From: Clostridia bacterium
GTDB taxonomy: Bacteria > Bacillota > Clostridia > UMGS1883 > UMGS1540
Length of the DNA: 64,000 nt
Direction: 5' to 3'
Assembly (NCBI GenBank): GCA_045533905.1
Contig: JAZSIR010000008.1
Span: 55,623 to 119,622 of the forward strand
Part shown: positions 35,139-60,594 of the stretch, in pieces
Layout: every line of letters starts with the position of its first letter
How positions within the stretch are numbered: position 1 is the first letter of the stretch
Position numbers and translations under genes: made by a program
The notes under the pieces: model-generated
What the model was told of the DNA's origin: nothing
The model's input: the letters and a program-made list of their open reading frames with translations, nothing else
Database searches by the model: none

Positions 35139-35621
35139 TTATTCTACGGAGAGCGCTTCTTCAAAAAGACGCTCGATTTCTTCGTGTGTACTATTTTTTG
35201 CAAGGACAAGTTCGCTAATAAGGATCTGCTTGGCGTTTGTCAGCATTTTCTTTTCGCCCGTGGAAAGCCCTTTTGTTTTATCGCGACACATCAGCATCTT
35301 TACAACGCCCGCCACTTCGTATACATTGCCGCTTTTGATTTTCAGCATATTTTCTCTGTAGCGTTTGTTCCAGCTGTTTTCGCATTCCGTTTCGAGCGCG
35401 CCGAATTCACCAATGACCTTGTCAGCCTCTTTACAGTCGATTACGTCACGGATACCGATTCGTTCGGCGTTGAGCATAGGAATCATAACCTTCATATCCC
35501 CAAGCGGCATCTTCATGACATAATATTTATTGACTTCGCCATGGAACTCCTGTTCCTCAATGGACTCGATAATCCCTGCACCGTACATAGGGTAAACCAC
35601 CTTGTCGCCGATGCTGTACAT
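35139..35621 (-). CDS. carD: CarD-family transcriptional regulator
   Basis: GDKVVYPMYGAG, WNKRYREN; carD-ispD-ispF order. Confidence 0.93.
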   Translation of the reverse strand: MYSIGDKVVYPMYGAGIIESIEEQEFHGEVNKYYVMKMPLGDMKVMIPMLNAERIGIRDVIDCKEADKVIGEFGALETECENSWNKRYRENMLKIKSGNVYEVAGVVKMLMCRDKTKGLSTGEKKMLTNAKQILISELVLAKNSTHEEIERLFEEALSVE

Positions 35622-38743: not shown

Positions 38744-39054
38744 AAGCCGTCCAACTTTCCGCGAAGCGAGTCTTCCGGCACAGCACCAATCACTCTTTCC
38801 ACTTCTTCGCCGTTTTTATAGAAAATCATTGTGGGGATGCTCATAATGCCGAGCCCTGCGGCGAGTGCGCCGTCTGTATCCGCATCCACTTTATAAACAT
38901 ACGCCTTTCCTTCATACTCCGCGGCGAGCTTTTCCACGATGGGAAGCATCATTTTGCACGGGCCGCACCAATCTGCATAAAAATCCACAAGCACCGGTTT
39001 ATCGGCGTTTTTTACCTTTGCATCATATTCTTCTGTTTTAATAATTGCTGCCAT
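38737..39054 (-). CDS. trxA: Thioredoxin
   Basis: WCGPC, SIPT; TTGACA-N17-TATACT promoter at 39081-39109. Confidence 0.96.
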   Translation of the reverse strand: MAAIIKTEEYDAKVKNADKPVLVDFYADWCGPCKMMLPIVEKLAAEYEGKAYVYKVDADTDGALAAGLGIMSIPTMIFYKNGEEVERVIGAVPEDSLRGKLDGLC

Positions 39055-39112
39055 AAAAATCATCCTTTCTGTTTGTTTTCAGTATACACTTTTTTGCCTT
39101 TTTTGTCAACAC

Positions 39113-42352: not shown

Positions 42353-42625
42353 TACAGTTTCTCCTTTTCATAGGTGGATTATGTGTTTACTATACCACAA
42401 ATTTGTCCGCTTGTCAAGGGAGATGCCCCCGAAAAACTTTGGTATAAGAATTTGGCACGCACAGATAAAAACGCAATATTTTTCGGGGATTTTTCGGGGC
42501 GCCAAGCAGAAATGCTATCGCAAAAAGTCAGAAGTGAACGCGAGTGGTTGTGTGCACATTCATACGCGCACAAGCGCCGCAAAGCGCGAATTTTTGCGAA
42601 AAAGGAGCCGGGCGTAGCATATGAG

Positions 42626-42795
42626 AAATGACCACTCAAAAGAGTGGTCATTTTGATTGCAGCGTAGTTTGCTCCCGAAGAATTACGGGGGCCCCGAAAA
42701 GCCGTAGGCTTTTTGGGGAGAAGGAGGGGCAAGGAAGCAGGCGAACGTTTTTTCTTGCAAAAGAAAAACGGAGCAAAGCGAACTTTGCTCCGACG
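42626..42795. repeat. Cluster of palindromes (REP-like element plus terminator) downstream of the tRNA-like 3' end
   Basis: Hairpins at 42626-42653, 42692-42718 and 42769-42792. Confidence 0.65.
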
Positions 42796-42825
42796 TGGTG
42801 GAAGCGGCGGGAGTTTTAGCCCGCC
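42796..42825 (-). mobile_element. Putative prophage att junction: isolated tmRNA/tRNA-like 3' end
   Basis: Minus strand GGCGGG-CTAAAACT-CCCGCCGCTTCCACCA: T-stem, acceptor 3' strand and ACCA, with no 5' half and an altered T-loop. Confidence 0.7.
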
Positions 42826-43000
42826 AAAACGCGCAATCATTCCCACACGGTCTGCACGCAAAAAACGCGAAAAAACGGCATTTCTCTGCCTTTCTATTCA
42901 CGCGCGCACAAGCCGAATTTTTCCGTTTTAAAATTTTTCGGGGATTTTTCGGGGATTTTCCCATTATTTGTCACCCCTCTTTGGAAAGGGGGTGCAACAA

Positions 43001-43905: not shown

Positions 43906-44055
43906 CTATTTCTTGTCAAATTTCCCACGGATCGTATCAGCCAGCATCTCAACCAGCTTTTCGAGCGCTGTCACCTTGCGTGCAAGCGGCCAGGTGATAA
44001 TCGCCGCCGTCGTCGCGCTTACCAGCAGGACCAAAAACCATAAAAACGGTTGCAC
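43906..44055 (-). CDS. Small single-TM protein (49 aa)
   Basis: GGAGGGAG RBS then GTG; hydrophobic N-terminus; hairpin CGGAGC...GCTCCG at about 43875-43891 downstream. Confidence 0.6.
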   Translation of the reverse strand: MQPFLWFLVLLVSATTAAIITWPLARKVTALEKLVEMLADTIRGKFDKK

Positions 44056-44191
44056 ATTTCTCCCTCCTTTCTTTTCTTTCGTTGCATACTCACACACCTC
44101 TCCTCACGTCATCACGTCTGTCAATACTGAAAGGTTTGTTTTCTTGAAAATTTTTTCAAAAAGAAAAAGCAGGGCAATCCGCCCCGCCATT

Positions 44192-44467
44192 TCAAAGCCT
44201 CAAAAATTCCCGATATAGCCCTTCTCTCTCCCCGGCCGTTCTGTTTTCTTCTAAGTACGCGCGGATTCTTTCGATAACTGCCGGCACGTCCTCATCCTCC
44301 GCATATCGTTCCGGATGCTGCAGTCTGCTTTTTAAGCAGTCCAGCTGCCACTTGTAGTCTGACACGAGCGGCACATCCACCACCGGAAACGTACCAACGC
44401 CCACCACCTTCTCCGCGCCAATGACCGCATACTCTCTTTCTCCTATTTTGTAGGTTTTCTTTTGCAT
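44192..44467 (-). CDS. Hypothetical protein (91 aa)
   Basis: AAGGGG RBS, protein-like composition. Confidence 0.7.
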   Translation of the reverse strand: MQKKTYKIGEREYAVIGAEKVVGVGTFPVVDVPLVSDYKWQLDCLKSRLQHPERYAEDEDVPAVIERIRAYLEENRTAGEREGLYREFLRL

Positions 44468-44598
44468 ATTCTACCCCCTTTCTTCCATGTACACGAAATG
44501 CACCCTGCTTACCTCTTGCCCGAAGTACAGGGTGTGTTTTCTTTCCCCCTTTCTTTCTTAAATACACGCGCACAATTTTAAAAAGGTTGCATTTACGC

Positions 44599-44626
44599 AA
44601 AAAGCGGAGCCGAAGCTCCGCTTTTT
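44599..44626. terminator. Intrinsic terminator of the phage late operon
   Basis: AAAAAGCGGAGC-CGAA-GCTCCGCTTTTT directly after the stop codon of the giant ORF. Confidence 0.88.
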
Positions 44627-47600
44627 CTATTCTGCATGTAGCGCATCGTATATTTCCGTACCTATTTCCACATCGTACGGATTGTTTTTCGGCTTCCACG
44701 ACTTATCCGCCAGCTGCCAAAGAACCGCCTTCTGCTTCTTCGTCAGATTCCGGTTTACCCCATCTGCCGTCGGAAGCATATAGCCGCCATGGCCCATAGC
44801 GTCAAGCGCCGCCTGCACCTCAGGCTGCTTGTAACTTCCGTTCTCATCCGCATCATATTTGGGTAATGTTTCGAGATACGCAAAGTACGTCCCCGGCGCA
44901 ACGCCATACGTATTTCCCATCGTAAGCTTCTCATATGCCCCTTCTTCCATCATCGTGGCAAGTGCCGCCATCGTTTCCGCCTCCGGAAGCTTCGCCGCCA
45001 CCACCGTCTTGTATCTCTGCATTCGGCTCACCGTTTCTTCCCCCTCTTCCGGGGTAAGTTTTTCAAGGTCAATCGAGAGGCGTATTGCATTTTCGCTCGT
45101 AAGCCCTGCATCCGTAAACTCTCTGTAGCTTGAAATCACCGTGCCGCCGGCTTCCTGCACGGTGGCAAACGCTTCTTTTCCGGACATACCCGCCGCCGTC
45201 AATTCTTTATAAAGCTCGGTTTCTTTTGCAGAAAGACTCTTGAACCCACTCCGCACCCAGTTTCGAGCCGTCGGGAGCGTCGTCTTGCCGAACAGCATCG
45301 CGCGGCCGCCGTTTAGTGCCGTCTCCCACCATTCTCCGTCGTTGTAAACCGGATACTGCAGAATTTCGTTTCCGTCTGCATCTACCGTGTAGCTGCCGCC
45401 GCGAATCATCGCATCCGCCCCTTCGGCGATTTTCTTGATTTGTCCGCCTGCAGGAAGCATGTAAAGGAGTGGCTTCGAAAGTTCTTTTGCGAGCGTCTGC
45501 CTCTTTTTCTTCCCGTCCCACTTCTCATATAGGAGTGCCTTCCCCATATTAGATACACTTGGTAACGCGCTGCTTATCGGTACACGGCCACCACCGAACA
45601 GGACACCGCCCACAAACGGCAGCTCCTCCCCTATGTTCTTCACAAGGTTGGACGCGCCCTTCCAAAGACTTGGGTTTTCCTCGCGTAAATCTGTCTCCCC
45701 GTCCACAAGATCAGAAAGTGCTGGCAAACGGTACCCCGTAAAATCTCCGGACGCTTCGTTCAAAAGACTCAAAAGGTCCATCGCAGGTCTCCTTCCAAAC
45801 AGAAGCTCGTACAGCTCATCGAAAATCCACGCCCCGAGGAACAGTTTCAAAAGCGCCACCGCAAGCGCCGCTATCCCTCTTTCCCGCATTGCACGCGGCA
45901 TATCCTTGAAAAGGTATCGGTATTGGTTGTTTACCTCAAGCTGGAACTGTGTGAATAACTTCTGCAAGGGATTTGTAGCGTTGAACGCCGTCGGCATTTC
46001 GCCGCGGCTTCGTCCCGCCATCACGCCTCGCGCAAAAGCATCGGCATCCTCCATAGCCGCCGCCTCGCTCATACCTGCGTCGATATTCTGCAGATATTTC
46101 GCGCGCACAATCGAATCCGCCGTAAATGCGTCGATGTATTCCATGCCGCCCGAAAGCTTGTCCACAGCCTTCTGGTATCCGCGCCACGCTTTCCCTATGG
46201 GGTTCTTTTTCTCCGGTCCCTGTTCCCACATCTTCACGAGCGGGTCAGACCCTCTTCTGCTTGTAAGGAATGCGCTCTGCGAAACAAAGTCGTCCGTATG
46301 GTCGAAGTACGCCCTCGCTGTCTCTCCCATACCGCGCAGGAGGTACTTCGAGTCTACAAGGCCCCACGCCTGCGTAAGCGGTATGAAGTTTGTGAGCCAG
46401 GACGGGATGTTGAGCGACACCATCGCTCCGCTCACATTGCTGTTTACGCGCTGCATAATGTTATACATTTTCCGCCCTAAGGTGTACTCCATATCTCTGT
46501 CCTGTCGGCTCTTCTTGTTTGCAAGGAGATTGGTATATTCTTCGAGTTCCACCACGAAATTCGAAAGCGCAAACTTTGCATCCTCGTAGAGCTTCGCAAT
46601 AAGCGTATCCTTTTCGTCTCGCGGCAGATCCTCGCGTTCTTCGATTCTGTCCACCTGCTTCTGCACGCCCTCGTCAGATGCCGCGTATCGGATTTCCTTT
46701 GCAAGCGCGCGAAGCTTCTGTATGTTGTCCGTCTGGTAAATGACGCCCGAAACGCCCTCGATGTACTTATCAAAGCCTTCCACCGCATCATACACCGTGT
46801 TGAACCCGAGACGTTCCTTCGCATTCCCGAACCACTGAATCCCCGGGCGGAATAAATGTGTCATGCCGTTAATGGTAGTCGGCAGTGCCGAAACTGAAGT
46901 ATCAATCCCGAGTGCCCTGCCAAACTGTGCAAGAACGCCCTCTTGCCCCGGCTGAAAATGCGGGAAATACCCTCGTCTGTAATTTACAGGTTCGTACCCG
47001 TTCCTCACGCGCACCGCATTCATTTTTTCAAATAATGTGTCGTAGATTTCGCGGAACGTCTTCACCGCCTCGCGGATCTTCCCTTCGTCAAGGTTCGGGT
47101 TTTCCGCCCAAAGCTTTTTCACATTCCCTTCCCATTCGGAAAGTGTTTGCCCGTCGCGCTTCGCGTCCTTCGGCATTACCCGTAAAACCGTGATATTATC
47201 CTCCGCTTCGCCGAGGAGCTGCACCGCATGCGCTTCGGAAACAAGGTTACCGCTCGCCACCTTTCTCGAAAGCCCGAGCGCGCGTACCTTCTCGCGCATT
47301 TCCTCTTTAAGCTTCACAGCCTCCGCGTTCCCTTTATATACGGGATTCAGATATTTTGCGATAAGCGCCGCCGCATCCTCGCCCATTACGTCCCTGAAGT
47401 TTCTCTCCATCGTTTCTATGGAGTAGCGCAGACCTGCGAGAAACTTCTTGTCTTTCCAATTTTCCATACCGCCAAGGTATTCGCGCGCCTCTGCCGCAAG
47501 CCCTTCCTTGCGTCTTCGGTTCCAGTCGCGGATGCGCTTTGCATACTGCTCGTATTCTTTTTTCGCGTTGTAAACGGCCAGAATGTCTTTCACGTTGTCC

Positions 47601-50600
47601 GTTTCCGTGTTCAAAGACATGGGGTTTATCTCGCCGCGAAGAAGCTGCCCCACGCGCACCGTATCCTCATCGGTCAAAAGCGCCTTGCGCGTCACCTTGT
47701 CAAGGTTTCGCCGCGTCGCCTTGAGGTTCTTGTACGCCTCCTGCACTTCTTCCTTTGTCTCGATGCGTGCCTTCTTTTCTTCTTCCTTTTTCTCTGTCTT
47801 GCGGCCCTGCTCGTCAGAATACCGCTTCACACGCTTGAAATCCACCGCTGCAGAATTCAGCGCCGCATGGAATTCATCCTTTGCCGCCTCTTTGAACACT
47901 TCCGCATCTTCACCATGCGCTTCATCCAGCGTCTGTTCTGTTTTCCGTATGCCGTCTGCAATTTCAAGCATATGCATAAGCTGGTCTGCAGGATGTGTAA
48001 TCTCTACCGGGAAAAGCTCCGGTGCCATTTCCTCAAGCTCCATATACGCCGAGTCCACAGGGAGTCCCCCTTCGTTTACAAGGCGAAGCTTTCCAAAGGC
48101 ACGCTTTCGAAAATCTCCAAAATCCGCAATGCTCGTGCGGTCTTCTTCGGAGATGGTCAGCTGCGTACTGCGGAGGTAGTCGCGGATGTATTTGTATTGT
48201 TTATAGTAATCTTCGTTTACTATAAGCCCCTCTCTCCACGCTGCCTCAAAAAGCTCGTCCGCCTTCGTGCGGTCAATCGCGCCGCGGTCGAGATAATCTT
48301 TCGAAATATCTCGAACAATGCTCTGCAAGGTTTCCCTTTGCGCCTTGCCCGGCACACTTAAAATTTCACCAATGCGCCCAAGCAGATGGCTTTCCGCCTG
48401 CCGAAGCGCCGCTTCTGCTTTCACAGGGAGCTTGTCCTTGGCCATCTCCTCGGCACCTGCTGCAGAGTAGCTTACCTTTATTTTTCCTTCAGCTTCTGAA
48501 GTTTTTTCACCACTTCTTCCTCCGTGTCCGTGGTAGCCACTATTTTTAACGCTTCCAGCGCCAGTTCTTTGCTGATTTGGTCGAAACTCGTAAGCAGACG
48601 AATGGTATCGTCTGAATAGCTCTCCAGCCTCCTGCTGAATGCCTCTCCGCTCACCCTCATAAATTCTCCTCCTTACGTCATCAAGACTTGTTTCGTCATA
48701 TTCGTCTATCTTTATCACGCTTGTGATAACAGGGTTCTCGATAGTGCCTTTTGCAAATACAAGGACGTTATTAACGCCCTCCTGCGATGCATCGTATATA
48801 TTGCTGACGGGTATAATATATTCCCCCGCTTTGGATTTGGGAAATTCCGCCATGCCGCTTACCGCGTCTGCAAATTTGGAACGATAGTCTGTATTTTGCC
48901 CTGCTGTAAGAATATTGTTTGCCCTGGCCCAGCCGTAATCTCTATATTCCTGTTCAGTATAACGCGGCACCGCGGCGTCCTTTTCTCCAAGGTCTGCCTG
49001 CTCTAAACTCTCGGCATTGCCGCCGGCATCCGCACTTTCAGTATACTCCGAAACTTTGTAACTGTCAATAAACTGTTCGTCGCCTTTCCAAAAAGCCTTC
49101 TGCAGCTCCGCAAAAGCGTGGAGGTAATCATAGTCCATATTGGAAAGCACATTTGCCACAAACTCTTCTATAAGAGCCTCCTCGTTGTCTTCGACGATTC
49201 CATTATAATCCGTTGCTAATTTTTCAAGAACCTGCTTTCTTTCCGAAGCTGAAAGGCTGTTTGTTATAATATTTTTGACCTTTTGAACAAGACGAGTGTT
49301 GTATTGGTCATGGATTCTTTCATGGTCATTGATTTGTTCCGGCGTAAACCATTCATTGTCATACTGCACAAGGACAGTTTTTCTTCCATCTTTTCGAACA
49401 TACACACCCCGTGCCATTTTATGGTTGCCCTTACTGTCTTTCTTCGATAGGATTCTTGCCTTTCCGGTTATGAAAATTGTTTCGTCAATACCATTTCGCA
49501 GGTTTTCTGCTTCTATTTTCCGCATACGCGGCGTGTACTGTTCTTTCGGAATAACCTCGCACGCAGTATCGTATACTACTTTTTCCTCGGTAAGCCCAGA
49601 AGCTCTGAGAGTTTCGCAATACTTTCTTCGCTCACGACCGGCTTCTCGCCCCTCTCGATAGCGGCTTGTCCTTCCATCCATTTTTCTAACTGGCTTGCCG
49701 GAACTCGCACTGTGCGTCCGCTCGCCGCTTCCATCTGATAATACACTTCTTCCTTCATTGTTTGTGCTCCCTTCGATAGTTCTAAGTGAATGATTCTCCT
49801 CATTAGAAAACCGGACATAAGGACCAATTTTCCCGTTTTTTCTTGCAATTCCGTAATGACTTAGTACAGACTGTGGCAAAATTTCCGAAAACTTTTCCTT
49901 GACAATATCCAGCAACTTCTTTATACTTATAGTAGCAGGAGCTGATGTGGAATTGGCAGTTTTGCCATCCCCCACCGTTGCCTTATTGGCAAAAGTTCCT
50001 GCTATTTTTTTTGCGTTGCCTGAAGACAAAACACCATACTCTTTTAATTCGTGCTTTCCATCTTGTCTAATGTTAACAATGAAATATGCTGGATAACTTG
50101 CTGAATCTGATTCTCCGTACCCAAGTAAAACGTATGTCCGTACGGCGCCGGCCTCCCTTGGTCTAAGTTCATTTACATAAATTGCATTTTCAATATACTC
50201 ACCAATTTTTGTGTCCACGATGGCGTTGTCCTGATATCTTCGCACTAATCCATGATTGATTCCCTCTGTGCCCACGATAATTTCTGTGTCTGTGTCCTTG
50301 TTATGCACAAAAAAAGTATTGCCATCATTGTGCTCATTTAGCCTGCTTTTCACATTTTCTTTTGCTAACGCTCGAGCTTCTGCCCTGCTAAGAATTTGTG
50401 AATCATCCACGTCTGTAATTGCCATGTCCTTCTTATTGATAAGCGAATCGTAGTCAATTGGATGTAGTGGGTCCTCGCTTAATGCATTTCCGCTGGATAT
50501 GTTAATGGGTTCTTCATCTTGGCCGGAAATTGAATACTTTCGCCCATCGTCATACAGCATGCTTTCTCCCGCCATGCTCGCTTCCGCTTCAAGGATGTCC

Positions 50601-53600
50601 ATCCTCTCATCATATTCCGCTTCCGTTATGTTTTCGTCTGCATACTCTGTAGCCACCGCATTTTTGGCAGCCTGCGTCTCGGTATGTGCCGCATGATTTC
50701 GCGGTAAAAGTTCCTCCGCTGTCGGAAGCACATGCTTTGGGAAAAGCGTATTAACATTTGTTTCTTCCTGCGTATATTTTCCGCCCTTCCGCGCATAATC
50801 ATCATTGACAACAGTATTTTCTTGTGATATACTGGTGTCAGTAGAGGATTTGTCGTTAATAGTTGCCAACCACTTATACAGTTGGGGATTCACTTGCGAC
50901 AGATCCTCTCTTTTATATTTTTCGGTAACACCATCGCTGGAAATTAAGTTCTGCACGTAATTGTTGTCAGAGCTGAATATAGTCACTACTACATTATAAT
51001 CTTTGTTTTTCCCATCAATGTCCTTGGTACTGTTAAGTTCGACGGATACAATCCCATTATTGCCTCTTTCGGTTTCTACCGTGGCAAAAAGATTTAATCT
51101 TCCGCTTGCAAGTTGTATAATCGCATCGGGGCTTTTCAAAAATTCCGGCAGTTTTTTTGCAATATCTGCCCCCAGATTGTGATAGTGCCCCTTAAATACG
51201 CCATCTTTTCTTACCGCAAGATAAAGGGTGTTATAATTAACTATAACCTTCAAGTCTCTCGCATCTTCAACATGATCCAAAATAACTTTCGGCGTATTCG
51301 AGGAAACCTCCACAGCCGTTCTCTTATCTGCCAAATCTTTTGCCACTTCATCCGAAACAGTTAAAATGCTATCTACCGCGCCACTGTAATCTTCTATCAG
51401 CTGCGCGTCTTCTTTTTCTCCTATTGTAACTTCCATTGCGGCGTTCGTCGAACGCGTTCCCTTTGTGACACCCTTTTCCACGAACGGCGCGCTCTGTTGC
51501 ACTTCCGGGGCGGTATTTGTTTTTTCTGCAACATTTGATCTTGCGTCCGTCTGTAATGTCGCCCCTTCAATGTTTAACGCCGAAAAATCTCCTCTTTGCA
51601 CCGCCATAACCTGCGCTTTCAAGGCAGAGTTTTCTCCATAAAGCTTCGCATGCACGTCACTCGTATTTTGAACGGCAGAAGCAAGGATGCCGCGAAGATG
51701 CATCGCCGCTTCCGCGAGGACGTTCGCATTGGTTATTTCCGCCGAAGCCTTGCCCGTCAGCACATAGTCTGTAAGAAGCTGTACGGCATCGGCACCGCCT
51801 TCCGAAAGCATTGTATAAGCAGGTGCCTTTCCTGCTTGCAATACGCCCACAAATGCCTCGGCATATTTTTCTACGTATGCTCTGTCAAACTGACTGTCCG
51901 CAGATTTCAGTACGCCAAGATTCGCCGCGTATACCGCGCTGTATCCACCTCTGCCGCCTGTAATTCCCTCCATTTTATCAGCCGCGGCATCGGTAATTTG
52001 CAGAGCTGCCCCAAAAATATCGGCCGCGCCTCCGGACTCGTTCGTTGTGAGTTCCACATCTCCCGTGGTTTGATACATGCGATTCACAATAGCATTTGCA
52101 TCGCTTTCGCTTACGCCTTTTTCTACAAGAGCGTTTTTTCGAATTATCAGTTCATTTGCTATATTCGCAGCATTTCCCACGGTCAAAATTGTGGTTTCCA
52201 ATTGTTCCGCGTACGCCTGAGCATATTTGATAATTTCCTTTTGTTTCGCTTCGACCTGCTCGACCGTAGCTTTTTTTATGTCCAGTATTTCAATCTTTTG
52301 ATTGTCTGCCAGAAAAGCATTGAAACCTTCGCTGATATCGTTTAAAGCAGAAGCCATATGCCTTACATTACTTTTCTGTATCGGATACGTGGCCGTTTGC
52401 ATAATAAGCGACAGCAGCACGCCTTGTTTGCCGCTTTCCAAAATTTCCGAAAACGTTGCTGCTCGTGCATTTTTGTCAACCCCCGAAATACGTTTTAATT
52501 TCGGTTCTACGCCCCGCATCAGCATTTCCTCTACGCCCTCGCTTCCAAAATTAAGCATTTTGCGCAGTCCCTTGTTTTTAACATTAAACTCAATCAAGGC
52601 ATCCCCGAAATCCGTGCCTGCAAAGCCGCCAAAAATCTTTTCCGTCATTAGTTCGCCGAGACCGGAAAGTGTACCGTAAACCAAGGATTTCCCCGCATCT
52701 TTCGATAACTCGTATCCTTCCTTCGCACTGCCCCCGGCAGCACTTGTGCCAAACACAATGCTGGAAGGAGTGAAAAATTTCTTTGATGCAGCCTTCAAAG
52801 TAGAAAGAGTGGTATTTTGGGCAGCTTTTCGCGCGAGTTCAAGTTCGAGCAGCGGGCTCCCGGTTGCTGTCATTATTTCCGCAACTATCGGAATAACTAA
52901 ATTCCCTGCACTTTGTACCACCCCTCCTAGCTCTCTTACAGCCGGATGCGGAGTCATTCGTTCTTCTGCGTTTCGGCTCATAACGTCAGATATCCCATCC
53001 GCTTCAAGGTTTTGACCTGCAAATCCCAGGACAGAATCGGCGGCCTTATTCGGAGCAACACCTCCAATTTGAAGCCCTTGCCCCACAAGCCAACTGGCCC
53101 CCGCCGTCAAATATCTGCCCGAGTTTTCCACCGTCCCGACTACGCCTGCCGCCGCTTTTGCGGCAAGATATTCGGCATTAACTGCTACCGGCCCCAGCAC
53201 CGGGTGGTTTTTTGCAAATGCCTCTCGGTCGTTTCTGGATGCTTGCGCGTGTAATACATTGAACTCCGCATCGTCCTGCTCCGTTGAGAGTTTCTTCCCA
53301 CTCAGAAACCCGAAAATCTTCTCGCGTTTTGGATCATATATCTTTCTGCCATTTTCGTCGTGGTACCATGTATAATTATGCGCCTCTGCCCATTTGTCCA
53401 AATCGTCGAAAGAAAATTCCTCCGGGTTAATATTATACTTTGCAAAAACAGGGTTGTTTTTTATCCACTCTTGTCTTTCCCTTTCTGCCAGATGCGCTTT
53501 AACCCTCTCCAGAACGCTTCCTTCGTCTTCGTCCACCGGTGCATATGTGTCTAATTTACCGTTTTGCATTGCGTAATACGCCGCCGGGCTGATTTGCACC

Positions 53601-54370
53601 GTGTCTCCTCCGTCCGGCATCACTATGCTGATGCTCTTTTGCCTTGATGCTTGCTCGGCCAACGTAAAAGCTTCTCTGGGGTCCTTCGGTATTCCCTCCA
53701 TTTTGCTCGGCAGTCTCTCCGGAACCCGTATTATTGTTCCCAAAGCAGGGTTTTCGGCCAGCCAGTCCTCCGTAACTTTCTCCTCTTTTTCGTAGTATGT
53801 TTGAAATTCCCCAAGCGTGGAATTGTGGTATTCTATTTCATCTGCATACGTGTCATATGTTTTTTGGTATCCCTTTGCACTTGTATCATAAAGAGATCTT
53901 GTCTTTTCCAAAAGAGAACGATCTGCATCCGAGCCGGTTGTTCTGTATTTGGTTTGTAAATCCTTTGCAAGCGCCCCGAAAATATCTATTTTCTTTTTCA
54001 GCGTTTTTAAGGTGCCCTCGTTTTCTTCTATGCGTTTCTTGGAATCATCCAGGGCGCTTTCGTACCAGCTCGACAAAACTCCGATTTTCGGCGTATAAGG
54101 CTGCCCGTTTTCTTTAGCTTCGCGTCTTCTCGTGTCCTCTTCCATTTGCACTTTTTGCAGCATGGCTTTGCTGCCGTATCTTCTGCGCACGCGGCTGTCG
54201 AAGTCATCTCTCGTTTCCCTTTTGCTGTTGAAAGCAGAGTTTTTTGTCTCCGTCTTTTCTTTGGTCTCTTTCTTTTCCTCCGTTTCCGCTTTTTTGTTGT
54301 TCCGCACACGGCTTTCAAAATCATCGCGTATCTCCCATAAGGTAGCGTGATTGTAATTTTTGTATGCCAT
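44627..54370 (-). CDS. Giant (3247 aa) phage polyvalent / DNA-ejection-type virion protein
   Basis: Last gene of the virion module; Ala/Gly-rich helical N-terminal region, central cassette of compact domains including a HERIH...EE zincin motif, long helical C-terminal region with hydrophobic segments. Confidence 0.88.
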   Translation of the reverse strand: MAYKNYNHATLWEIRDDFESRVRNNKKAETEEKKETKEKTETKNSAFNSKRETRDDFDSRVRRRYGSKAMLQKVQMEEDTRRREAKENGQPYTPKIGVLSSWYESALDDSKKRIEENEGTLKTLKKKIDIFGALAKDLQTKYRTTGSDADRSLLEKTRSLYDTSAKGYQKTYDTYADEIEYHNSTLGEFQTYYEKEEKVTEDWLAENPALGTIIRVPERLPSKMEGIPKDPREAFTLAEQASRQKSISIVMPDGGDTVQISPAAYYAMQNGKLDTYAPVDEDEGSVLERVKAHLAERERQEWIKNNPVFAKYNINPEEFSFDDLDKWAEAHNYTWYHDENGRKIYDPKREKIFGFLSGKKLSTEQDDAEFNVLHAQASRNDREAFAKNHPVLGPVAVNAEYLAAKAAAGVVGTVENSGRYLTAGASWLVGQGLQIGGVAPNKAADSVLGFAGQNLEADGISDVMSRNAEERMTPHPAVRELGGVVQSAGNLVIPIVAEIMTATGSPLLELELARKAAQNTTLSTLKAASKKFFTPSSIVFGTSAAGGSAKEGYELSKDAGKSLVYGTLSGLGELMTEKIFGGFAGTDFGDALIEFNVKNKGLRKMLNFGSEGVEEMLMRGVEPKLKRISGVDKNARAATFSEILESGKQGVLLSLIMQTATYPIQKSNVRHMASALNDISEGFNAFLADNQKIEILDIKKATVEQVEAKQKEIIKYAQAYAEQLETTILTVGNAANIANELIIRKNALVEKGVSESDANAIVNRMYQTTGDVELTTNESGGAADIFGAALQITDAAADKMEGITGGRGGYSAVYAANLGVLKSADSQFDRAYVEKYAEAFVGVLQAGKAPAYTMLSEGGADAVQLLTDYVLTGKASAEITNANVLAEAAMHLRGILASAVQNTSDVHAKLYGENSALKAQVMAVQRGDFSALNIEGATLQTDARSNVAEKTNTAPEVQQSAPFVEKGVTKGTRSTNAAMEVTIGEKEDAQLIEDYSGAVDSILTVSDEVAKDLADKRTAVEVSSNTPKVILDHVEDARDLKVIVNYNTLYLAVRKDGVFKGHYHNLGADIAKKLPEFLKSPDAIIQLASGRLNLFATVETERGNNGIVSVELNSTKDIDGKNKDYNVVVTIFSSDNNYVQNLISSDGVTEKYKREDLSQVNPQLYKWLATINDKSSTDTSISQENTVVNDDYARKGGKYTQEETNVNTLFPKHVLPTAEELLPRNHAAHTETQAAKNAVATEYADENITEAEYDERMDILEAEASMAGESMLYDDGRKYSISGQDEEPINISSGNALSEDPLHPIDYDSLINKKDMAITDVDDSQILSRAEARALAKENVKSRLNEHNDGNTFFVHNKDTDTEIIVGTEGINHGLVRRYQDNAIVDTKIGEYIENAIYVNELRPREAGAVRTYVLLGYGESDSASYPAYFIVNIRQDGKHELKEYGVLSSGNAKKIAGTFANKATVGDGKTANSTSAPATISIKKLLDIVKEKFSEILPQSVLSHYGIARKNGKIGPYVRFSNEENHSLRTIEGSTNNEGRSVLSDGSGERTHSASSGKPVRKMDGRTSRYREGREAGRERRKYCETLRASGLTEEKVVYDTACEVIPKEQYTPRMRKIEAENLRNGIDETIFITGKARILSKKDSKGNHKMARGVYVRKDGRKTVLVQYDNEWFTPEQINDHERIHDQYNTRLVQKVKNIITNSLSASERKQVLEKLATDYNGIVEDNEEALIEEFVANVLSNMDYDYLHAFAELQKAFWKGDEQFIDSYKVSEYTESADAGGNAESLEQADLGEKDAAVPRYTEQEYRDYGWARANNILTAGQNTDYRSKFADAVSGMAEFPKSKAGEYIIPVSNIYDASQEGVNNVLVFAKGTIENPVITSVIKIDEYDETSLDDVRRRIYEGERRGIQQEAGELFRRYHSSAYEFRPNQQRTGAGSVKNSGYHGHGGRSGEKTSEAEGKIKVSYSAAGAEEMAKDKLPVKAEAALRQAESHLLGRIGEILSVPGKAQRETLQSIVRDISKDYLDRGAIDRTKADELFEAAWREGLIVNEDYYKQYKYIRDYLRSTQLTISEEDRTSIADFGDFRKRAFGKLRLVNEGGLPVDSAYMELEEMAPELFPVEITHPADQLMHMLEIADGIRKTEQTLDEAHGEDAEVFKEAAKDEFHAALNSAAVDFKRVKRYSDEQGRKTEKKEEEKKARIETKEEVQEAYKNLKATRRNLDKVTRKALLTDEDTVRVGQLLRGEINPMSLNTETDNVKDILAVYNAKKEYEQYAKRIRDWNRRRKEGLAAEAREYLGGMENWKDKKFLAGLRYSIETMERNFRDVMGEDAAALIAKYLNPVYKGNAEAVKLKEEMREKVRALGLSRKVASGNLVSEAHAVQLLGEAEDNITVLRVMPKDAKRDGQTLSEWEGNVKKLWAENPNLDEGKIREAVKTFREIYDTLFEKMNAVRVRNGYEPVNYRRGYFPHFQPGQEGVLAQFGRALGIDTSVSALPTTINGMTHLFRPGIQWFGNAKERLGFNTVYDAVEGFDKYIEGVSGVIYQTDNIQKLRALAKEIRYAASDEGVQKQVDRIEEREDLPRDEKDTLIAKLYEDAKFALSNFVVELEEYTNLLANKKSRQDRDMEYTLGRKMYNIMQRVNSNVSGAMVSLNIPSWLTNFIPLTQAWGLVDSKYLLRGMGETARAYFDHTDDFVSQSAFLTSRRGSDPLVKMWEQGPEKKNPIGKAWRGYQKAVDKLSGGMEYIDAFTADSIVRAKYLQNIDAGMSEAAAMEDADAFARGVMAGRSRGEMPTAFNATNPLQKLFTQFQLEVNNQYRYLFKDMPRAMRERGIAALAVALLKLFLGAWIFDELYELLFGRRPAMDLLSLLNEASGDFTGYRLPALSDLVDGETDLREENPSLWKGASNLVKNIGEELPFVGGVLFGGGRVPISSALPSVSNMGKALLYEKWDGKKKRQTLAKELSKPLLYMLPAGGQIKKIAEGADAMIRGGSYTVDADGNEILQYPVYNDGEWWETALNGGRAMLFGKTTLPTARNWVRSGFKSLSAKETELYKELTAAGMSGKEAFATVQEAGGTVISSYREFTDAGLTSENAIRLSIDLEKLTPEEGEETVSRMQRYKTVVAAKLPEAETMAALATMMEEGAYEKLTMGNTYGVAPGTYFAYLETLPKYDADENGSYKQPEVQAALDAMGHGGYMLPTADGVNRNLTKKQKAVLWQLADKSWKPKNNPYDVEIGTEIYDALHAE
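48478..48660 (-). CDS. Nested +1-frame small gene (60 aa) inside the giant ORF
   Basis: TAAGGAGG-AGAATTT-ATG; amphipathic helical product MRVSGEAF...EEEVVKKLQKLKEK; the host frame is a disordered-looking linker here. Confidence 0.65.
   Translation of the reverse strand: MRVSGEAFSRRLESYSDDTIRLLTSFDQISKELALEALKIVATTDTEEEVVKKLQKLKEK
49576..49758 (-). CDS. Nested +1-frame small gene (60 aa) inside the giant ORF
   Basis: AAGGGAG-CACAAACA-ATG; product MKEEVYYQMEAASGRTVRVPASQLEKWMEGQ...; the host frame is an R/G/S-rich linker here. Confidence 0.65.
   Translation of the reverse strand: MKEEVYYQMEAASGRTVRVPASQLEKWMEGQAAIERGEKPVVSEESIAKLSELLGLPRKK
49899..49927 (+). promoter_or_regulatory. Antisense sigma-A promoter inside the giant ORF
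   Basis: TTGACA(49899-49904)-N17-TATACT(49922-49927). Confidence 0.8.
49933..50012 (+). ncRNA. Candidate antisense small RNA A (three-way junction, T8 tail)
   Basis: TAGCAGGAGCT pairs with AGTTCCTGCTA; inner hairpins TGGCA/TGCCA (within GTGG/CCAC) and TTGCC/GGCAA; T8 tract. Confidence 0.65.
50805..50833 (+). promoter_or_regulatory. Antisense sigma-A promoter inside the giant ORF
   Basis: TTGACA(50805-50810)-N17-TATACT(50828-50833) with TGn extension. Confidence 0.8.
50840..50922 (+). ncRNA. Candidate antisense small RNA B (long stem-loop, U-rich tail)
   Basis: AGAGGATTTGTCG pairs with CGACAGATCCTCT (13 bp, one G-U); inner CCAAC/GTTGG; followed by CTTTTATATTTTT. Confidence 0.65.
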
Positions 54371-54387
54371 ATATTAGCCCTTCTTTC

Positions 54388-55749
54388 TTAAAACCCTTTT
54401 TTGAAACCTACCTCTAGCATTGTATCTTCACCGAGTGCCCCTGCCAAAGTATCCCATTCCTCCGAAGTAGGTATAACCATATCCGGGTACATCGACTTTA
54501 TATTCCCCCACGGCTCCGTCTGTGGTTCTGCCTGCGGCTGCGTCTGCGGCTCCGGGATCGGAAGCGTCTCCCCGCCGCCACCGTTTCCGTTTATAACCGC
54601 CTGCAGAAGGCTGTTGTTCCCTGTTGCGTCATACACGTCTTTGGCGTAGTCAAGCTCTGCGCCCTTCACTTCAAGCCCCAAAAGCTTTTTGATATAGCTC
54701 GCATCATACCCGAGCGCCTCAAATTCGCTGGTATCCCCCGTAGCATTTGCCACATTCATAGCGTGCGAAAGCTTCGCCGCTGCTTCCTCTCGTCCGTACT
54801 CTGCTTCAAGACGGCTTGTGTCAATCCCGAGCCTCTGTAAAGGTTTCAAGTCCCCAGCTTCCAATGCCTTATATGCCATCTCAACAGTGTCCTTAAACCG
54901 ATCGTATTTACTGTCATCTATGGTCTTCAGAATATCCGCATCGCTGACAAGTCTGTCGCGCTCGCCCGCCCAAACATCGTACGCGAAGTTACGTCCATCC
55001 CTGTAGTCCTGGACTTTATCGCGGTGCTTTTGATAGTCGCTTTCTTCGAGCGCCCGCAATACATCCAAATCCTGTATTTTCATCGCGTGCTCGTTCATAT
55101 ACTGGTTGTACGCCGCCTCGTAAAGCTCCGGAATTTTATCCGAAAGCGCCGCCGCATATTGATTCCCCGCCTGTGCCGCGGCCGTCATTGCGTAGGAAGA
55201 AGGAATGCCGCCCGTCATGGCTGCCGCTATCCCCATGGTATCCTCTGTCGCGCGCCGTCCTTCGCGTGTATACTGCTTTTTATACTGCGCAAAGCGCGGG
55301 TCCGTCTCCGCATCATAGGTAAACGGATCACGGTTTAAAATCTCGTTGCGGATTTTCCGCATGTCGCGGTCGTTTCGGCTCACATATGTCGGCGCCTCCT
55401 CGTCGTATGTAAACGGCTCATAGTTTGCCACTTTATCTACCGCACTCTGTACCTTGCCCGATACTGTCGGGAAGGAAGACGTCGCATCGCTCACCGGTTC
55501 CTTGTAGTACCAGTCTCCCGCGGCGCCGCCTGTATACCCGCCATACTTTTTGCGGACTGCCTCCGCGCCCTGGTTTGCCATGGCTCTTGCCTCGTCCGTT
55601 TCCGCGGCGTAGTATTCCGTCTTATAGTTTAGAATCTGCATCCCTGCGTCCGGATTTTCCCTCGCAAGCTTCAAGTCAAAATCCGAAAACCGCTCAAATA
55701 ATCCTCTGCCCTTTGCCGCTTTTTCAAAATCCTCGTACGTGATATTCAT
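54388..55749 (-). CDS. Phage protein, probable internal virion/ejection protein (453 aa)
   Basis: Helical Ala/Gln/Tyr-rich protein with AAAMTGGIPSSYA segment; between the tail-hub-like gene and the giant ORF. Confidence 0.7.
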   Translation of the reverse strand: MNITYEDFEKAAKGRGLFERFSDFDLKLARENPDAGMQILNYKTEYYAAETDEARAMANQGAEAVRKKYGGYTGGAAGDWYYKEPVSDATSSFPTVSGKVQSAVDKVANYEPFTYDEEAPTYVSRNDRDMRKIRNEILNRDPFTYDAETDPRFAQYKKQYTREGRRATEDTMGIAAAMTGGIPSSYAMTAAAQAGNQYAAALSDKIPELYEAAYNQYMNEHAMKIQDLDVLRALEESDYQKHRDKVQDYRDGRNFAYDVWAGERDRLVSDADILKTIDDSKYDRFKDTVEMAYKALEAGDLKPLQRLGIDTSRLEAEYGREEAAAKLSHAMNVANATGDTSEFEALGYDASYIKKLLGLEVKGAELDYAKDVYDATGNNSLLQAVINGNGGGGETLPIPEPQTQPQAEPQTEPWGNIKSMYPDMVIPTSEEWDTLAGALGEDTMLEVGFKKGF

Positions 55750-58604: not shown

Positions 58605-60110
58605 TCACTTTTTCGGCGTGCCCCACTTTTGTATCAAATATTTTCTGCCCTCGGTATCCGCGTTTTCATAGTCCTCCCACATATCGCGCGTCCACGTCTT
58701 TTCCGCACCATTTTTCGCTTCGCAGGTGTATCTCTGCTGTGGTCGTATGCCGTGTGCAATGGCGAGCGCCATCACGCAGTCGTCGTGCGCCCCTGCTTCC
58801 GCCTCAGGTTTCCAGTCCTCACCGCGCACAAAGGTCAGCATTTCCTCGAGCGTCGTCTCGTCGCACACTATGCGCACGTCCTCGCGCACCGCGCGGATAA
58901 GCTCCGACAAAATAACAGGCCGCGTCTTGGTGCCCGTCCAAAAGCCAAAACTGTGCTTTGGTTTCTGCGTAAAGTCATCCACCGTCTCGCGCACATATTG
59001 CTTCGGGTAGGAAAGCCTCTGTAGCTCCATCACGGGATATGTGGAGAAGTTTGTTTCGATGCCGACGAGCGCGGTGTTATAGTACATCCCGAGGCAGTAT
59101 ACCTGCCGCGCATAAACGTCCTCATCAAAGGAATGGCGAAGGATGGCCACCTGCTCGCCGGTGCGGTTATCAATCACCTGTGCCACAAACTTGTCGCTTC
59201 CGTTTCCGGCCGTGTCACCGCCGATAACATACGGCACGCCTTCCTCGGGCTCCTTGTATATTTTAATAAAGCCGTCGCGGTCATCTAAAAATCGTATATT
59301 CGATATGCGAAGTCCGTCGTACCCGAAATCGAACATGCCCACCTTCTTCGGCTGTATCTTTTCCGAAAGGCGCGCCGATACCTTCTTACTGTCAAACACG
59401 CTCTTCCCGGTTGCGCCCCACATGCCGAGGCAGTATACCGTGTAGTAGTATTCGTCAATATCCCGAAAGGCTTCGAGCGTTCGCCGGTCCTCCTCCGGAA
59501 GAAACCGATTGTCACGGTACGTGGATTCGTGTGTACGTACACGTGCATCCTTTCTGTCAAAAAAGCGCGCCTTCAGCCAGTGCTTGAGGCTCACGGGGTT
59601 GAATGTCAGTATAATCTGTTTGTAAAATTCCGTCTCGCCGCGAAGACGGATGTCGAGCTGATTAAAGTCCGCCTCCGAAATTTCGCTCGCTTCCTCCACC
59701 CATATGCCCGTGATATTGTAAATGGATTTGAGCTTTTCCACATCATCAAGGCCTGCAAATAAAATTTCGCTCCCGTTTCCAAAGCGCATCCGCATATCCC
59801 CGCGGTGGATGCGGCATCCGCTCTCGGGGTAAAACTCCGCCGCCTGCCCCGAAAGCTGGGTAAAACAGCTCTCGCGTATGGTACGTGCTACCTTTCGGCA
59901 TACCAAAAAGCGGTGACCCGCTTCGCACGTGCACCGCTCCAAAACCTTCCGTCCGGCAAAAATGCTCTTGCCGCTGCCGCCGCCACCCTTTAGAATAAGG
60001 TGCCGGTGCTCATCGCCAAAAAGCGGCATGAAGGTATCGTTATTCGTTTTCCGAAGCTCGTTGTACCAAACGGCAAGCGCCGCCGATTCCTCAATCTTCT
60101 TTCTGTCCAT
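58605..60110 (-). CDS. Terminase large subunit (PBSX-like)
   Basis: Walker A KGGGGSGKS, GLDDVEKLKS, WVEEASE, TFNP, nuclease GGDTA...HDDCVMALAI. Confidence 0.95.
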   Translation of the reverse strand: MDRKKIEESAALAVWYNELRKTNNDTFMPLFGDEHRHLILKGGGGSGKSIFAGRKVLERCTCEAGHRFLVCRKVARTIRESCFTQLSGQAAEFYPESGCRIHRGDMRMRFGNGSEILFAGLDDVEKLKSIYNITGIWVEEASEISEADFNQLDIRLRGETEFYKQIILTFNPVSLKHWLKARFFDRKDARVRTHESTYRDNRFLPEEDRRTLEAFRDIDEYYYTVYCLGMWGATGKSVFDSKKVSARLSEKIQPKKVGMFDFGYDGLRISNIRFLDDRDGFIKIYKEPEEGVPYVIGGDTAGNGSDKFVAQVIDNRTGEQVAILRHSFDEDVYARQVYCLGMYYNTALVGIETNFSTYPVMELQRLSYPKQYVRETVDDFTQKPKHSFGFWTGTKTRPVILSELIRAVREDVRIVCDETTLEEMLTFVRGEDWKPEAEAGAHDDCVMALAIAHGIRPQQRYTCEAKNGAEKTWTRDMWEDYENADTEGRKYLIQKWGTPKK

Positions 60111-60594
60111 CCTCGTCCTCTTTGAATGTTTTTGCAAGCTCGCGGCAGGCTTCATACTTTTCGGAAAGGCTCATATTTCGCGCCACGCTCTTCCGCGTCT
60201 CGGTGCCGAATTCTATTTCCTGCTTCTGCCGCCATCCGTAATTGTTTTGAAGATTAAATATGATGCCCTGCACGCTTTTCTCCCGAAGGAGGAGCTGCTC
60301 CTCCAGATACGCCTCAATCCGTGCCTTCGCCTTTTTTATTACCCCGCAAAGCTGCGGATTTTCTTCCTCGTCCTGATAATTTTGCCACGTGGAGCGGTCT
60401 ATGCCAAGATACAGGCATAGGCCGCTTACTGTGGGCGGCACGGCGTATTCTGTCACCATAATCACTTCTCCATCCGCGTTTTGTAAGGCACGCCCGTTTT
60501 TATCCCTCGCCTCGCGAAAGGCGCTTATGGAGCGAAAGTATTTCTCGATCGCCTCTTCGAGCTCTTTTTTCGAATATTTCTTCGGTCTCGCCAA
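60091..60594 (-). CDS. Terminase small subunit / DNA-packaging protein
   Basis: ARPKKY, PPTVSGLCLYLGIDRSTWQNY HTH, GIIFNLQNNYGW; directly upstream of TerL. Confidence 0.88.
   Translation of the reverse strand: MARPKKYSKKELEEAIEKYFRSISAFREARDKNGRALQNADGEVIMVTEYAVPPTVSGLCLYLGIDRSTWQNYQDEEENPQLCGVIKKAKARIEAYLEEQLLLREKSVQGIIFNLQNNYGWRQKQEIEFGTETRKSVARNMSLSEKYEACRELAKTFKEDEDGQKED

Follow-up and report, generated by a model that had tools for sequence, protein, structure and literature searches.

On the prevailing view, polyvalent proteins are what a phage or plasmid delivers into a cell first, as weapons. Among the small elements that phages write into or against larger genes, OOP of lambda and sar of P22 are transcribed from strong promoters of their own into RNAs of about 70-80 nt, which comprise little beyond a terminator and are fully complementary to a phage mRNA. 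Rz1 of lambda is a small gene embedded entirely in the +1 frame of the larger gene Rz, with its own start. In the HigBA type II pairs, the toxin gene comes first. In type I toxin-antitoxin systems the antitoxin is an antisense RNA, according to the available part of PMC11980606. Polyvalent proteins themselves are described, in the available part of Iyer et al. (2017, PMC5512222), as giant polypeptides that join MuF_C/PBECR, LPD and metallopeptidase domains, adjoin virion genes and have heavily shuffled domains. The terms 'overlapping', 'antisense' and 'small RNA' are absent from that paper, and our literature searches returned no account of nested or antisense elements in polyvalent proteins.

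The window analysed here, i.e. the whole stretch of DNA under study, comprises 64,000 nt of a Clostridia bacterium (GCA_045533905.1, JAZSIR010000008.1 positions 55,623 to 119,622, forward strand). It contains a prophage with one giant gene:

44627..54370, minus strand: giant ORF, 3247 aa with no interruption, polyvalent-type virion protein of the prophage

Genes for the terminase large subunit, a P22-like portal and an amidase lie within 10 kb upstream of the giant ORF, and host genes lie below about 42 kb of the window. An earlier note on this DNA had described one uninterrupted ORF of 3247 codons holding an AT-richer stretch of 3 kb, and both the ORF and the GC profile agree with it (GC of 0.39-0.48 at 48.4-51.5 kb, against 0.51-0.58 at 44.6-48.4 kb). 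AT-richer patches are also found at 52.0-52.8 and 53.2-54.4 kb, so that the 3-kb stretch is not unique. Four domains lie in the stretch:

50933..51190, minus strand: domain 1, MuF_C (PBECR-type), residues 1061-1146, Pfam PF18819
50010..50395, minus strand: domain 2, LPD3-like, sub-threshold Pfam match
49090..49560, minus strand: HExxH (zincin-like) domain, HERIH at 49310-49324
48662..48973, minus strand: domain 4, unnamed, alpha-alpha-beta-beta-beta-alpha-beta order, weak RelE/ParE-type likeness

Of the two identities proposed beforehand for domains 1 and 2, the first held and the second stayed below threshold. Domain 1 matched Pfam MuF_C with an E value of 6.1e-9 and 36.4 bits on the cut-out segment, above the gathering cut-off of 27.6; its C-terminal conserved motif extends to about 50840 in the motif alignment, and 263 relatives were found among 1.84 billion representatives. 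Domain 2 (4 homologues, 37-45% identity) reached only 18.6 bits against LPD3 (PF18798, E 0.0022), under the gathering cut-off of 27, which amounts to a likeness only. The HERIH motif is present as had been reported, and the HExxH pattern is common to three distant homologues (HEYIH in G013, HEMVH in G009); this domain had no Pfam match and gave a weak LPD23 lead in the Atlas. For domain 4, Pfam gave no family and Foldseek no match. It has 29 relatives and a predicted structure with a pLDDT of 89.9; RelE, ParE, HigB, YoeB and microbial RNases make up most of its top fold matches, with Z at most 4.0, under the tool's noise level, and the domain is possibly RelE/ParE-like.

The giant protein thus joins MuF_C to at least three further conserved domains, and its gene sits among virion genes in a prophage, as expected from the earlier description of it as a polyvalent-type phage protein. 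It has in common with the polyvalent proteins described in the available part of PMC5512222 the MuF_C/PBECR domain accompanied by others, the virion-gene neighbourhood and the shuffling, and differs from what is published there in that its linkers carry second genes. Relatives of the giant ORF keep a common backbone and have different inserts, which supports reading the 3-kb stretch as a set of swappable cassettes, as had been suggested. Comparison of these genes further indicates that cassettes pass from one giant gene to another to which it is otherwise unrelated.

Two of the second elements are small genes in the +1 frame:

49576..49758, minus strand: nested gene A, 60 codons, ATG start, +1 frame, GGGAG 8 nt upstream of the ATG
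48478..48660, minus strand: nested gene B, 60 codons, ATG start, +1 frame, AAGGAGG 7 nt upstream of the ATG

A scan of the giant gene for alternative-frame ORFs of at least 40 aa with a strong ribosome-binding site returned these two and one junk ORF. They are hosted by low-complexity linkers whose main frame is poorly conserved. An open +1 frame in the purine-rich linkers of the giant gene is not in itself unusual (P 0.04-0.63). At these genes, two frames are open beyond chance once the nested protein is taken as given.

Nested gene B has 11 homologues of 61-72 aa (59-84% identity). Two other genomes carry it as well, again in the +1 frame of a longer ORF, one of 2755 aa (G079) and one of 750 aa that is open-ended (G069); what these ORFs have in common with the 3247-aa protein is limited to residues 1804-1972. 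The start of the gene overlaps the last codons of domain 4, and AGGAG and the ATG are retained, in all three DNA copies. When the three copies were compared in pairs, substitutions in domain 4 peaked at main-frame position 3 (59/97, 62/104 and 45/82), and within the overlap the peak moved to position 3 of the nested frame (34/70, 36/80 and 21/44). Main-frame position 3 became the lowest there, except in G079 versus G069, where it was second-lowest (12 against 11). With the nested protein taken as given, the main frame would remain open by chance with P 0.002, 0.0004 and 0.0016; stops number 6-8 in the third frame, and the main-frame alignment continues through the overlap in 23 of the 29 domain 4 relatives. 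The embedded frame is thus under purifying selection, and the gene proposed earlier at 48660-48478 is borne out by the codon-position switch, the retained ribosome-binding site and start, and the 11 homologues.

Nested gene A overlaps the low-complexity main-frame linker where the HExxH cassette begins. Four close homologues (76-85% identity, 77-85% as aligned) have start and end at identical positions. In G013, a +1-frame copy of its first 33 residues (E 8.3e-5) stands directly before the HExxH domain, where main-frame identity is 28% only. The proposed gene is therefore seen again in the same place and frame; its apparent conservation is drawn from proteins without their DNA and from one distant copy, and, for a fixed nested protein, the main frame would remain open by chance with P 0.05-0.08. 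Both nested genes resemble Rz1 in their +1-frame embedding and own start, and differ from Rz/Rz1 in their unrelated function, in having a disordered linker as host frame and in belonging to one of several cassettes.

On the other strand, two candidate antisense RNA modules follow domains 1 and 2:

50805..50922, plus strand: antisense module B, promoter TTGACA-17(TG)-TATACT at 50805-50833, predicted RNA from about 50840
49899..50012, plus strand: antisense module A, promoter TTGACA-17-TATACT at 49899-49927, predicted RNA from about 49934

Predicted RNA B (about 80 nt) is closed by a 14-bp stem, has an inner hairpin and ends in a U-run (fold z -6.5), and predicted RNA A (about 75 nt) forms a three-way junction and has a T8 run (fold z -5.4). 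Both promoters are near-consensus (11/12) and agree with the host's own consensus, so that the host-type antisense promoters claimed before were found. Sites of at least 11/12 number nine in the window, three of them inside the 3-kb stretch; synonymous-codon shuffles gave 0.19 sites on average, and none of 1000 reached three.

Conservation of the modules was then measured. Domain 2 homologues were sought with a peptide pattern in which the promoter codons were unconstrained, which yielded 22 loci and 3 true homologues; module A is present in 5/5 domain 2 homologues having DNA, the window included. An RNA model built from three module A copies, the window excluded, gave 67 bits for L017 and 58 bits (E 1e-9) for the window. 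Module B was found at 17 viral loci representing 7 distinct sequences, and its core is unchanged in 4 gut runs although the flanks differ. Its -10 hexamer varies and stays promoter-like (TATACT, TACAAT, TATAAT, TACATT, TACCTT), while the residues encoded there change (SI, IV, II, NV, KV). Across its 23 pairs, 99.5% of cells are paired, and in 5 of the pairs both partners have changed; none of 500 shuffles did as well, and slid controls gave 39-48%. Further modules were detected, five in other giant genes and five in 4 more genomes of the order, all 10 opposite an open frame; across modules, 8/8 pairs of the outer stem are changed on both sides, in an alignment fitted to the model. The modules accordingly combine a conserved promoter and intrinsic terminator with a conserved secondary structure showing compensatory changes, and the two antisense sRNAs of the earlier note are supported as predictions by promoter, structured RNA, U-run and comparison.

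Modules A and B are like OOP and sar in their own strong promoter, their short terminator-like predicted RNA and its full complementarity to phage mRNA. They are unlike them in lying inside a structural/effector coding region, several per gene, each tied to one cassette. Neither a sequence relation nor an Rfam relation to OOP or sar was found, and Rfam covariance models run over 44000-55000 gave 0 matches at E up to 1. As in type I systems, insofar as the available part of their description goes, a predicted, constitutive antisense RNA lies across the 3' part of the coding region of a toxin-like (BECR RNase-type) module; here, unlike there, the 'toxin' is a domain in a 3247-aa protein, with no small hydrophobic membrane peptide and no separate toxin mRNA.

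All four hidden elements are kept alongside their neighbouring domain in other phages, in line with the co-occurrence that had been anticipated; the link is not universal, as G009, a standalone HExxH homologue, is without nested gene A. The reading that we prefer, with a probability of roughly 45%, is that the inter-domain stretches are read twice, and that the partners so encoded are inherited together with the adjacent domain and probably serve it as regulators or antidotes specific to the cassette. Translation of the 60-aa proteins would begin on the giant mRNA at ribosome-binding sites of their own, and each protein would bind the neighbouring domain (domain 4, or the HExxH peptidase) in the manner of antitoxins or immunity proteins. 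The host-type promoters would give antisense RNAs of about 75-80 nt that pair with the giant mRNA directly after the MuF_C and LPD3-like domains, and pairing would shut down or cut the message, as do OOP, sar or type I antitoxin RNAs; the lysogen is one plausible setting for this. The domain 4 cassette resembles HigBA pairs and polymorphic toxin-immunity cassettes (PMC3482391): a gene for a small helical protein comes immediately after a RelE/ParE-like domain (so called on weak fold evidence), its start overlaps the domain end, and the two move as one cassette. It departs from type II pairs in that the read-through frame of the giant ORF covers nested gene B from end to end, and nested gene B has no family match.

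A stronger form of this reading, which we consider doubtful, is that each effector cassette is an autonomous toxin-antidote unit, with an antisense RNA or a small protein as the antidote in the linker DNA, and that this grammar is widespread in phages of gut Clostridia. The antidote would then share its DNA with the linker of the giant ORF, so that recombination would never separate effector from antidote. Against an antidote, in the preferred reading too, a virion protein made late in a lytic cycle may need no neutralisation. Moreover a single antisense RNA would silence the whole mRNA, and one RNA per cassette is therefore not explained by silencing alone.

The elements might also be real genes that are not domain-specific antidotes, an explanation to which we give something under one chance in three. 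The RNAs would be general brakes of the OOP/sar kind on late genes or on read-through in the lysogen, and the 60-aa proteins accessory, moron-like or assembly factors whose genes had simply settled where disordered linkers tolerate them. Conservation proves function and not which function, low-complexity and poorly conserved linkers are cheap hosts for a second reading, modules of one grammar come after many different domains, and neither protein A nor protein B matches any of the known antitoxin and immunity families searched. Yet in giant genes that are otherwise unrelated, each element accompanies the same particular domain, and nested gene B begins inside domain 4's last codons in each DNA copy.

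The hairpins and hexamers could instead act as DNA or as sense mRNA, e.g. as recombination sites at cassette junctions or mRNA processing sites, with no antisense RNA made. The elements do lie at cassette borders, their hexamers fall within a recurring peptide, ISIxxLLxxV[KN], and the sense-strand fold is equal or better in 5 of 18 modules. We nevertheless judge this improbable: the antisense fold is the better one in the other 13, by 3.9 kcal/mol on average, the U-run follows the stem on the antisense strand only, pairs that are invariably G-U would turn into A-C mismatches in the sense strand, and the promoter parts (-35, 17-bp spacing, TG and -10) survive the amino-acid changes.

As for the nested genes, frameshifting is known to be stimulated by Shine-Dalgarno-like sequences placed a few bases upstream, e.g. 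in prfB and dnaX, and the conserved AGGAG might be such a stimulator of programmed +1 frameshifting, giving truncated isoforms with 60-residue tails and no internal initiation. This is highly improbable, as the ATG stands at the same column in the three DNA copies of B, with the G017 start placed alike, and at normal initiation spacing (7-9 nt); all 15 database homologues of A and B begin at that column, and no slippery or rare-codon site was identified. That the whole is due to chance in DNA rich in AT and purines, or to artefacts of assembly, is hardly credible: the open +1 frame is not rare here and such DNA does yield promoter-like sites, but the shuffles and fold z-scores given above, and the conservation, covariation and codon-position switch across independent assemblies, contradict it.

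If the linkers of polyvalent-protein genes are read twice, as we propose, this would be a second coding layer, of which none is described in the literature searched. Elements of this sort would escape standard gene callers, and with them thousands of phage genomes would gain small proteins and small RNAs of a hidden class. They would show how an essential virion gene can carry dangerous domains, and provide a compact natural case of dual coding with selection on both readings. More of them could be sought with the promoter-stem-U-run grammar and the peptide footprint cited above.

Finally, the 3-kb stretch contains a promoter-like site on the sense strand, which is not kept in two relatives having domain 4, and a possible third, weaker antisense module:

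49040..49068, minus strand: promoter-like site, 11/12
51340..51428, plus strand: possible antisense module, 10/12 promoter, small hairpin and U-rich tail, z -3.5

Host genes fill the window up to ~42 kb (threonine synthase, PGI, IspD/IspF, CarD, PrmA, thioredoxin and others), and phage genes follow from ~44.6 kb on. They include an ORF of 3247 codons without interruption, whose giant protein matched no family in PHROGs. The source assembly counts 1.57 Mb in 23 contigs, and its nearest relatives in the databases come from gut samples and carry the label Clostridia MAG. The earlier note had pointed, inside the giant gene, to an AT-richer stretch of ~3 kb, and the measured composition agrees with this, GC being 0.39-0.48 at 48.4-51.5 kb versus 0.51-0.58 in the 3.8 kb below. 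Two further AT-richer patches are found higher up in the gene. The features under study are the following:

44627..54370, minus strand: giant ORF
50805..50922, plus strand: antisense module B, behind domain 1
49899..50012, plus strand: antisense module A, behind domain 2
49576..49758, minus strand: nested gene A, before the HExxH domain
48662..48973, minus strand: domain 4
48478..48660, minus strand: nested gene B, behind domain 4
58605-60155, minus strand: large terminase
60610-62682, minus strand: P22-like portal
phage region of the window, minus strand: amidase

Comparison with giant ORFs of related genomes indicates that the 3-kb stretch is a set of cassettes. These ORFs have in common backbone residues 1975-2421 and a linker motif of ~60 residues (residues 1228-1290, window 50501-50689, minus strand), with other inserts between the two. 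Inside the stretch, this motif is the part most often in common, present at 10 of the 14 non-self places among those listed, which spread over 7 of the 11 other matching genomes; one gene of genome G006 has it twice (L003/L013). The motif may mark cassette borders or recombination points. A genome-contig scan gave one locus, with only a linker motif in common. The giant ORFs of genomes G079 and G069 have only residues 1804-1972 in common with the window protein, i.e. domain 4 and the nested gene B overlap. In database protein P0183, the domain-4 cassette runs directly into a nested-A-type linker. Protein-guided scans of viral contigs and two metagenome scans gave no relatives, and the search of a phage collection gave a single record, MT838554.1.

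A short motif, K[VF]x[YF]S[LA](K), recurs at cassette ends, at window 49805-49816 and 48464-48478 (minus strand) and in many related proteins. Peptidases of the HExxH kind are proposed, in passages of Iyer et al. 2017 (PMC5512222), to cut polyvalent proteins into units, and the motif is a candidate cleavage site for such a peptidase. Because it marks cassette borders, gene B goes with the domain-4 unit and gene A with the HExxH unit, which is the pairing initially suggested. In gut run X5, a 152-base contig fuses the end of nested gene A (49575) to the C-terminal part of domain 4 (48757), skipping 817 bases; as its short side has only 38 letters, we take it as no more than a sign that some relative may have its cassettes in a different order.

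Both nested ORFs are as first described, with 60 codons, an ATG and the +1 frame, and the ATG is preceded by GGGAG at 8 nt in one and by AAGGAGG at 7 nt in the other. Together with a single junk ORF, they are the only alternative-frame ORFs of at least 40 codons with a strong ribosome-binding site in the 9.7-kb gene. For gene B, a search of 5.8 billion proteins yielded 11 small proteins (61-72 aa, 59-84% identical), with the same start column in all. Two of the 86 other genomes of the order carry a DNA copy, each in the +1 frame of a giant ORF and directly 3′ of a domain-4 homologue. Gene B and domain 4 sequences from three genomes were then compared pairwise by codon position. In domain 4, differences were concentrated at main-frame position 3 (59/97, 62/104 and 45/82 for the three pairs), the pattern that main-frame reading predicts. 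Within the overlap, they were concentrated at nested position 3, corresponding to position 1 of the main frame (34/70, 36/80 and 21/44), and were lowest at main-frame position 3, or second-lowest in G079 versus G069 (12 vs 11). Selection in the overlap follows the nested frame, and this comparison is the decisive one. Upon random synonymous recoding of gene B, the main frame was open in only 0.04-0.2% of the trials; 6-8 stops interrupt the third frame. Among domain-4 relatives of the protein database, the main-frame alignment spans the overlap in 23 of 29; the main-frame product there is of low complexity and diverges rapidly past a short motif conserved in both frames. Since the nested frame is under selection and the main frame is held open, the comparison argues for true dual coding, and for nested gene B as a real gene.

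Genome G017 has a standalone, distant domain-4-like gene with, at the equivalent place, a 59-codon +1 ORF (L027 1311-1487, minus strand) preceded by AAGGAG, and the same IY[DE] codons supply its ATG. The likeness of this ORF to family B is not significant (1.5 bits), so that it was dropped as a member and is a positional hint only.

Nested gene A is very probably a real gene too, on thinner evidence than gene B. Four small proteins are known (61-63 aa, 76-85% identical), with start, end and conservative substitutions in common. A single distant DNA copy was found, in genome G013, where an ORF in the +1 frame aligns with residues 1-33 (E 8.3×10−5 in that genome). It lies immediately 5′ of an HExxH domain only 28% identical to that of the window, and the main-frame sequence that it overlaps is unrelated. 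The chance probabilities of an open main frame are 0.05 and 0.08. A standalone HExxH homologue in G009 lacks an ORF of this type. Ten homologues of the nested genes gave nothing above cut-off in Pfam.

The antisense modules A and B both start with the promoter TTGACA-17-TATACT, and their RNAs are predicted to begin 6-7 nt behind the −10 elements. Sites matching at least 11 of 12 positions number only 9 in 64 kb, 3 of them inside the 3-kb stretch. The remaining six are listed below.

Remaining promoter sites with 11-12 of 12 matches
35695, minus strand: ~75 bases upstream of the carD-like ORF 35139-35621, by coordinates
39109, minus strand: ~45 bases upstream of the thioredoxin ORF 38737-39063, by coordinates
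42417, minus strand: within ORF 42379-42861
24545, minus strand
20463, minus strand
12438, plus strand

Since two such sites precede host genes, TTGACA-17-TATACT is supported as a working consensus of the host, in keeping with the host-type promoters that had been claimed for both modules.

The predicted folds are a three-way junction for module A (z −5.4) and a long bulged stem for module B (z −6.5), both closing at the first transcribed bases and stopping just short of the U-run; Rfam gave no match for the modules or the stretch. The gut-phage record MT838554.1 encodes a domain-2 homologue (43% identity) and, antisense to the same linker, TTGACT-17-TATACT, a three-way junction of different sequence and T8. 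Viral contigs were scanned with a fully degenerate back-translation of the peptide flanking module A, leaving the promoter codons free. Only 3 of the 22 loci found have true domain-2 homologues (37-41% identity), and module A is present in all three; a covariance model built from them recovered MT838554.1 with 67 bits and the window with 58. These comparisons indicate that module A is conserved.

For module B, the DNA of 17 viral loci, amounting to 7 distinct sequences, was compared. The −35 element and the 17-nt spacer with its TG are retained, and the −10 element varies among good variants as the encoded residues vary. The stems show compensatory changes, among them synonymous changes that pair up across two different codons: over 23 pairs, 99.5% of the cells are paired and 5 pairs have changed on both sides. 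None of 500 shuffles reached the observed covariation, and slid controls paired at 39-48%. The RNA core (50840-50919) occurs with differing flanks in contigs of four gut runs, contigs that span the 3-kb stretch only in part; TATACT adjoins it in all 5 loose ends at the core start (50840-50854), and is missing from a sixth, at 50855 in X5. At the protein level, V[NK] at the −35 place is retained in 73 of 99 usable domain-1 relatives. Of the 26 relatives missing V[NK], many show xS[NTQ], which would be compatible with the same GTCAA in a shifted phase. Module B is conserved.

Every weaker match of the module A model proved to be a complete module lying antisense to another giant gene: five in loci already collected, and five more in 4 further genomes of the order, where 5 of the 87 genomes searched matched, counting that of the window. 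All 8 outer-stem pairs have changed on both sides in the fitted alignment, and 13 of 18 modules are more stable as antisense than as sense RNA. The grammar of promoter, stem and U-run thus seems to be general.

The names first suggested for the domains were borne out in part. Domain 1 is MuF_C (residues 1061-1146, above the curated cut-off; 36.4 bits when the segment is scored by itself, with a faint PBECR2 signal besides), and LPD3 stayed below threshold for domain 2 (E 0.0022), whose structure model was set aside (pLDDT 43.8). MuF_C is a predicted BECR-fold RNase domain according to passages of Iyer et al. 2017 (PMC5512222). A search of 1.84 billion representatives gave 263 relatives of domain 1, whose C-terminal motif is strikingly conserved together with the residues after it; across the order, domain 1 had a single distant match. 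The HERIH domain and domain 4 had no match in Pfam, and the ESM Atlas was uninformative for the former, whose HExxH motif is retained in three distant homologues. Domain 4 was modelled well (pLDDT 89.9; alpha-alpha-beta-beta-beta-alpha-beta). Foldseek found nothing for this model in PDB or BFVD at E up to 0.001, and an exhaustive aligner gave Z of at most 4.0, with top rows mostly of RelE, ParE, HigB, YoeB, YafQ or microbial RNases. The likeness of the model to RelE/ParE-type toxins and RNases is a lead and no assignment. When the class was searched for domain 4, 2 of 399 genomes scored, G000 included, and G017 was the only find; profile searches of PDB sequences gave nothing meaningful for queries A1, A2 or A9.

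Four embedded elements, each under selection, are each inherited with one domain. We favour, with a probability of about 0.45, cassette-specific regulators or antidotes. Translation of the small proteins would begin at their own starts within the giant mRNA, and each would act upon the domain next to it. In their arrangement, domain 4 and gene B mimic a type II pair with the toxin first, or a cassette of toxin and immunity gene. OOP, sar and type I antitoxin RNAs are models for antisense action on a message; the antisense RNAs, from host-type promoters, would likewise base-pair with the giant mRNA downstream of the RNase-type domains, plausibly in the lysogen.

Real genes with general, non-cognate roles are a rather unlikely second explanation. 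Hairpins acting at the DNA or sense-RNA level are improbable: two invariant U-G pairs of module B would be mismatches on the sense strand. Access to the nested frames by frameshift is still less probable, the ATG being retained in all three gene B sequences at 7-9 nt from an AGGAG that is itself conserved. Chance features are scarcely credible, as synonymous-codon shuffles of the stretch gave a mean of 0.19 promoter sites and none of 1000 reached three.

Cis-antisense RNAs, overprinted genes and polyvalent proteins are known kinds, taken singly. In the literature searched, bioRxiv supplements and subscription journals excepted, no description was found of nested genes, or of genes for antisense RNAs, within the genes of polyvalent proteins, and the words 'overlapping', 'antisense' and 'small RNA' are absent from the founding paper (Iyer et al. 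2017, PMC5512222). Within the range of these searches, it is new to see the three kinds systematically combined and linked to cassettes.

A few other promoter-like sites were noted. A sense-strand TTGACA-17-TATACT just before domain 4 (49040-49068, minus strand) was dropped, being conserved in neither G079 nor G069 and followed by an unremarkable RNA (z −1.6), as was a 10/12 site at 50172 that no structure follows (z +0.8). A possible third antisense module (51340-51428, plus strand) precedes domain 1; its promoter TTGCCA-16-TAAAAT is followed by a small hairpin (z −3.5) and a tail rich in U, and the peptide encoded over it has the same SI...V footprint.
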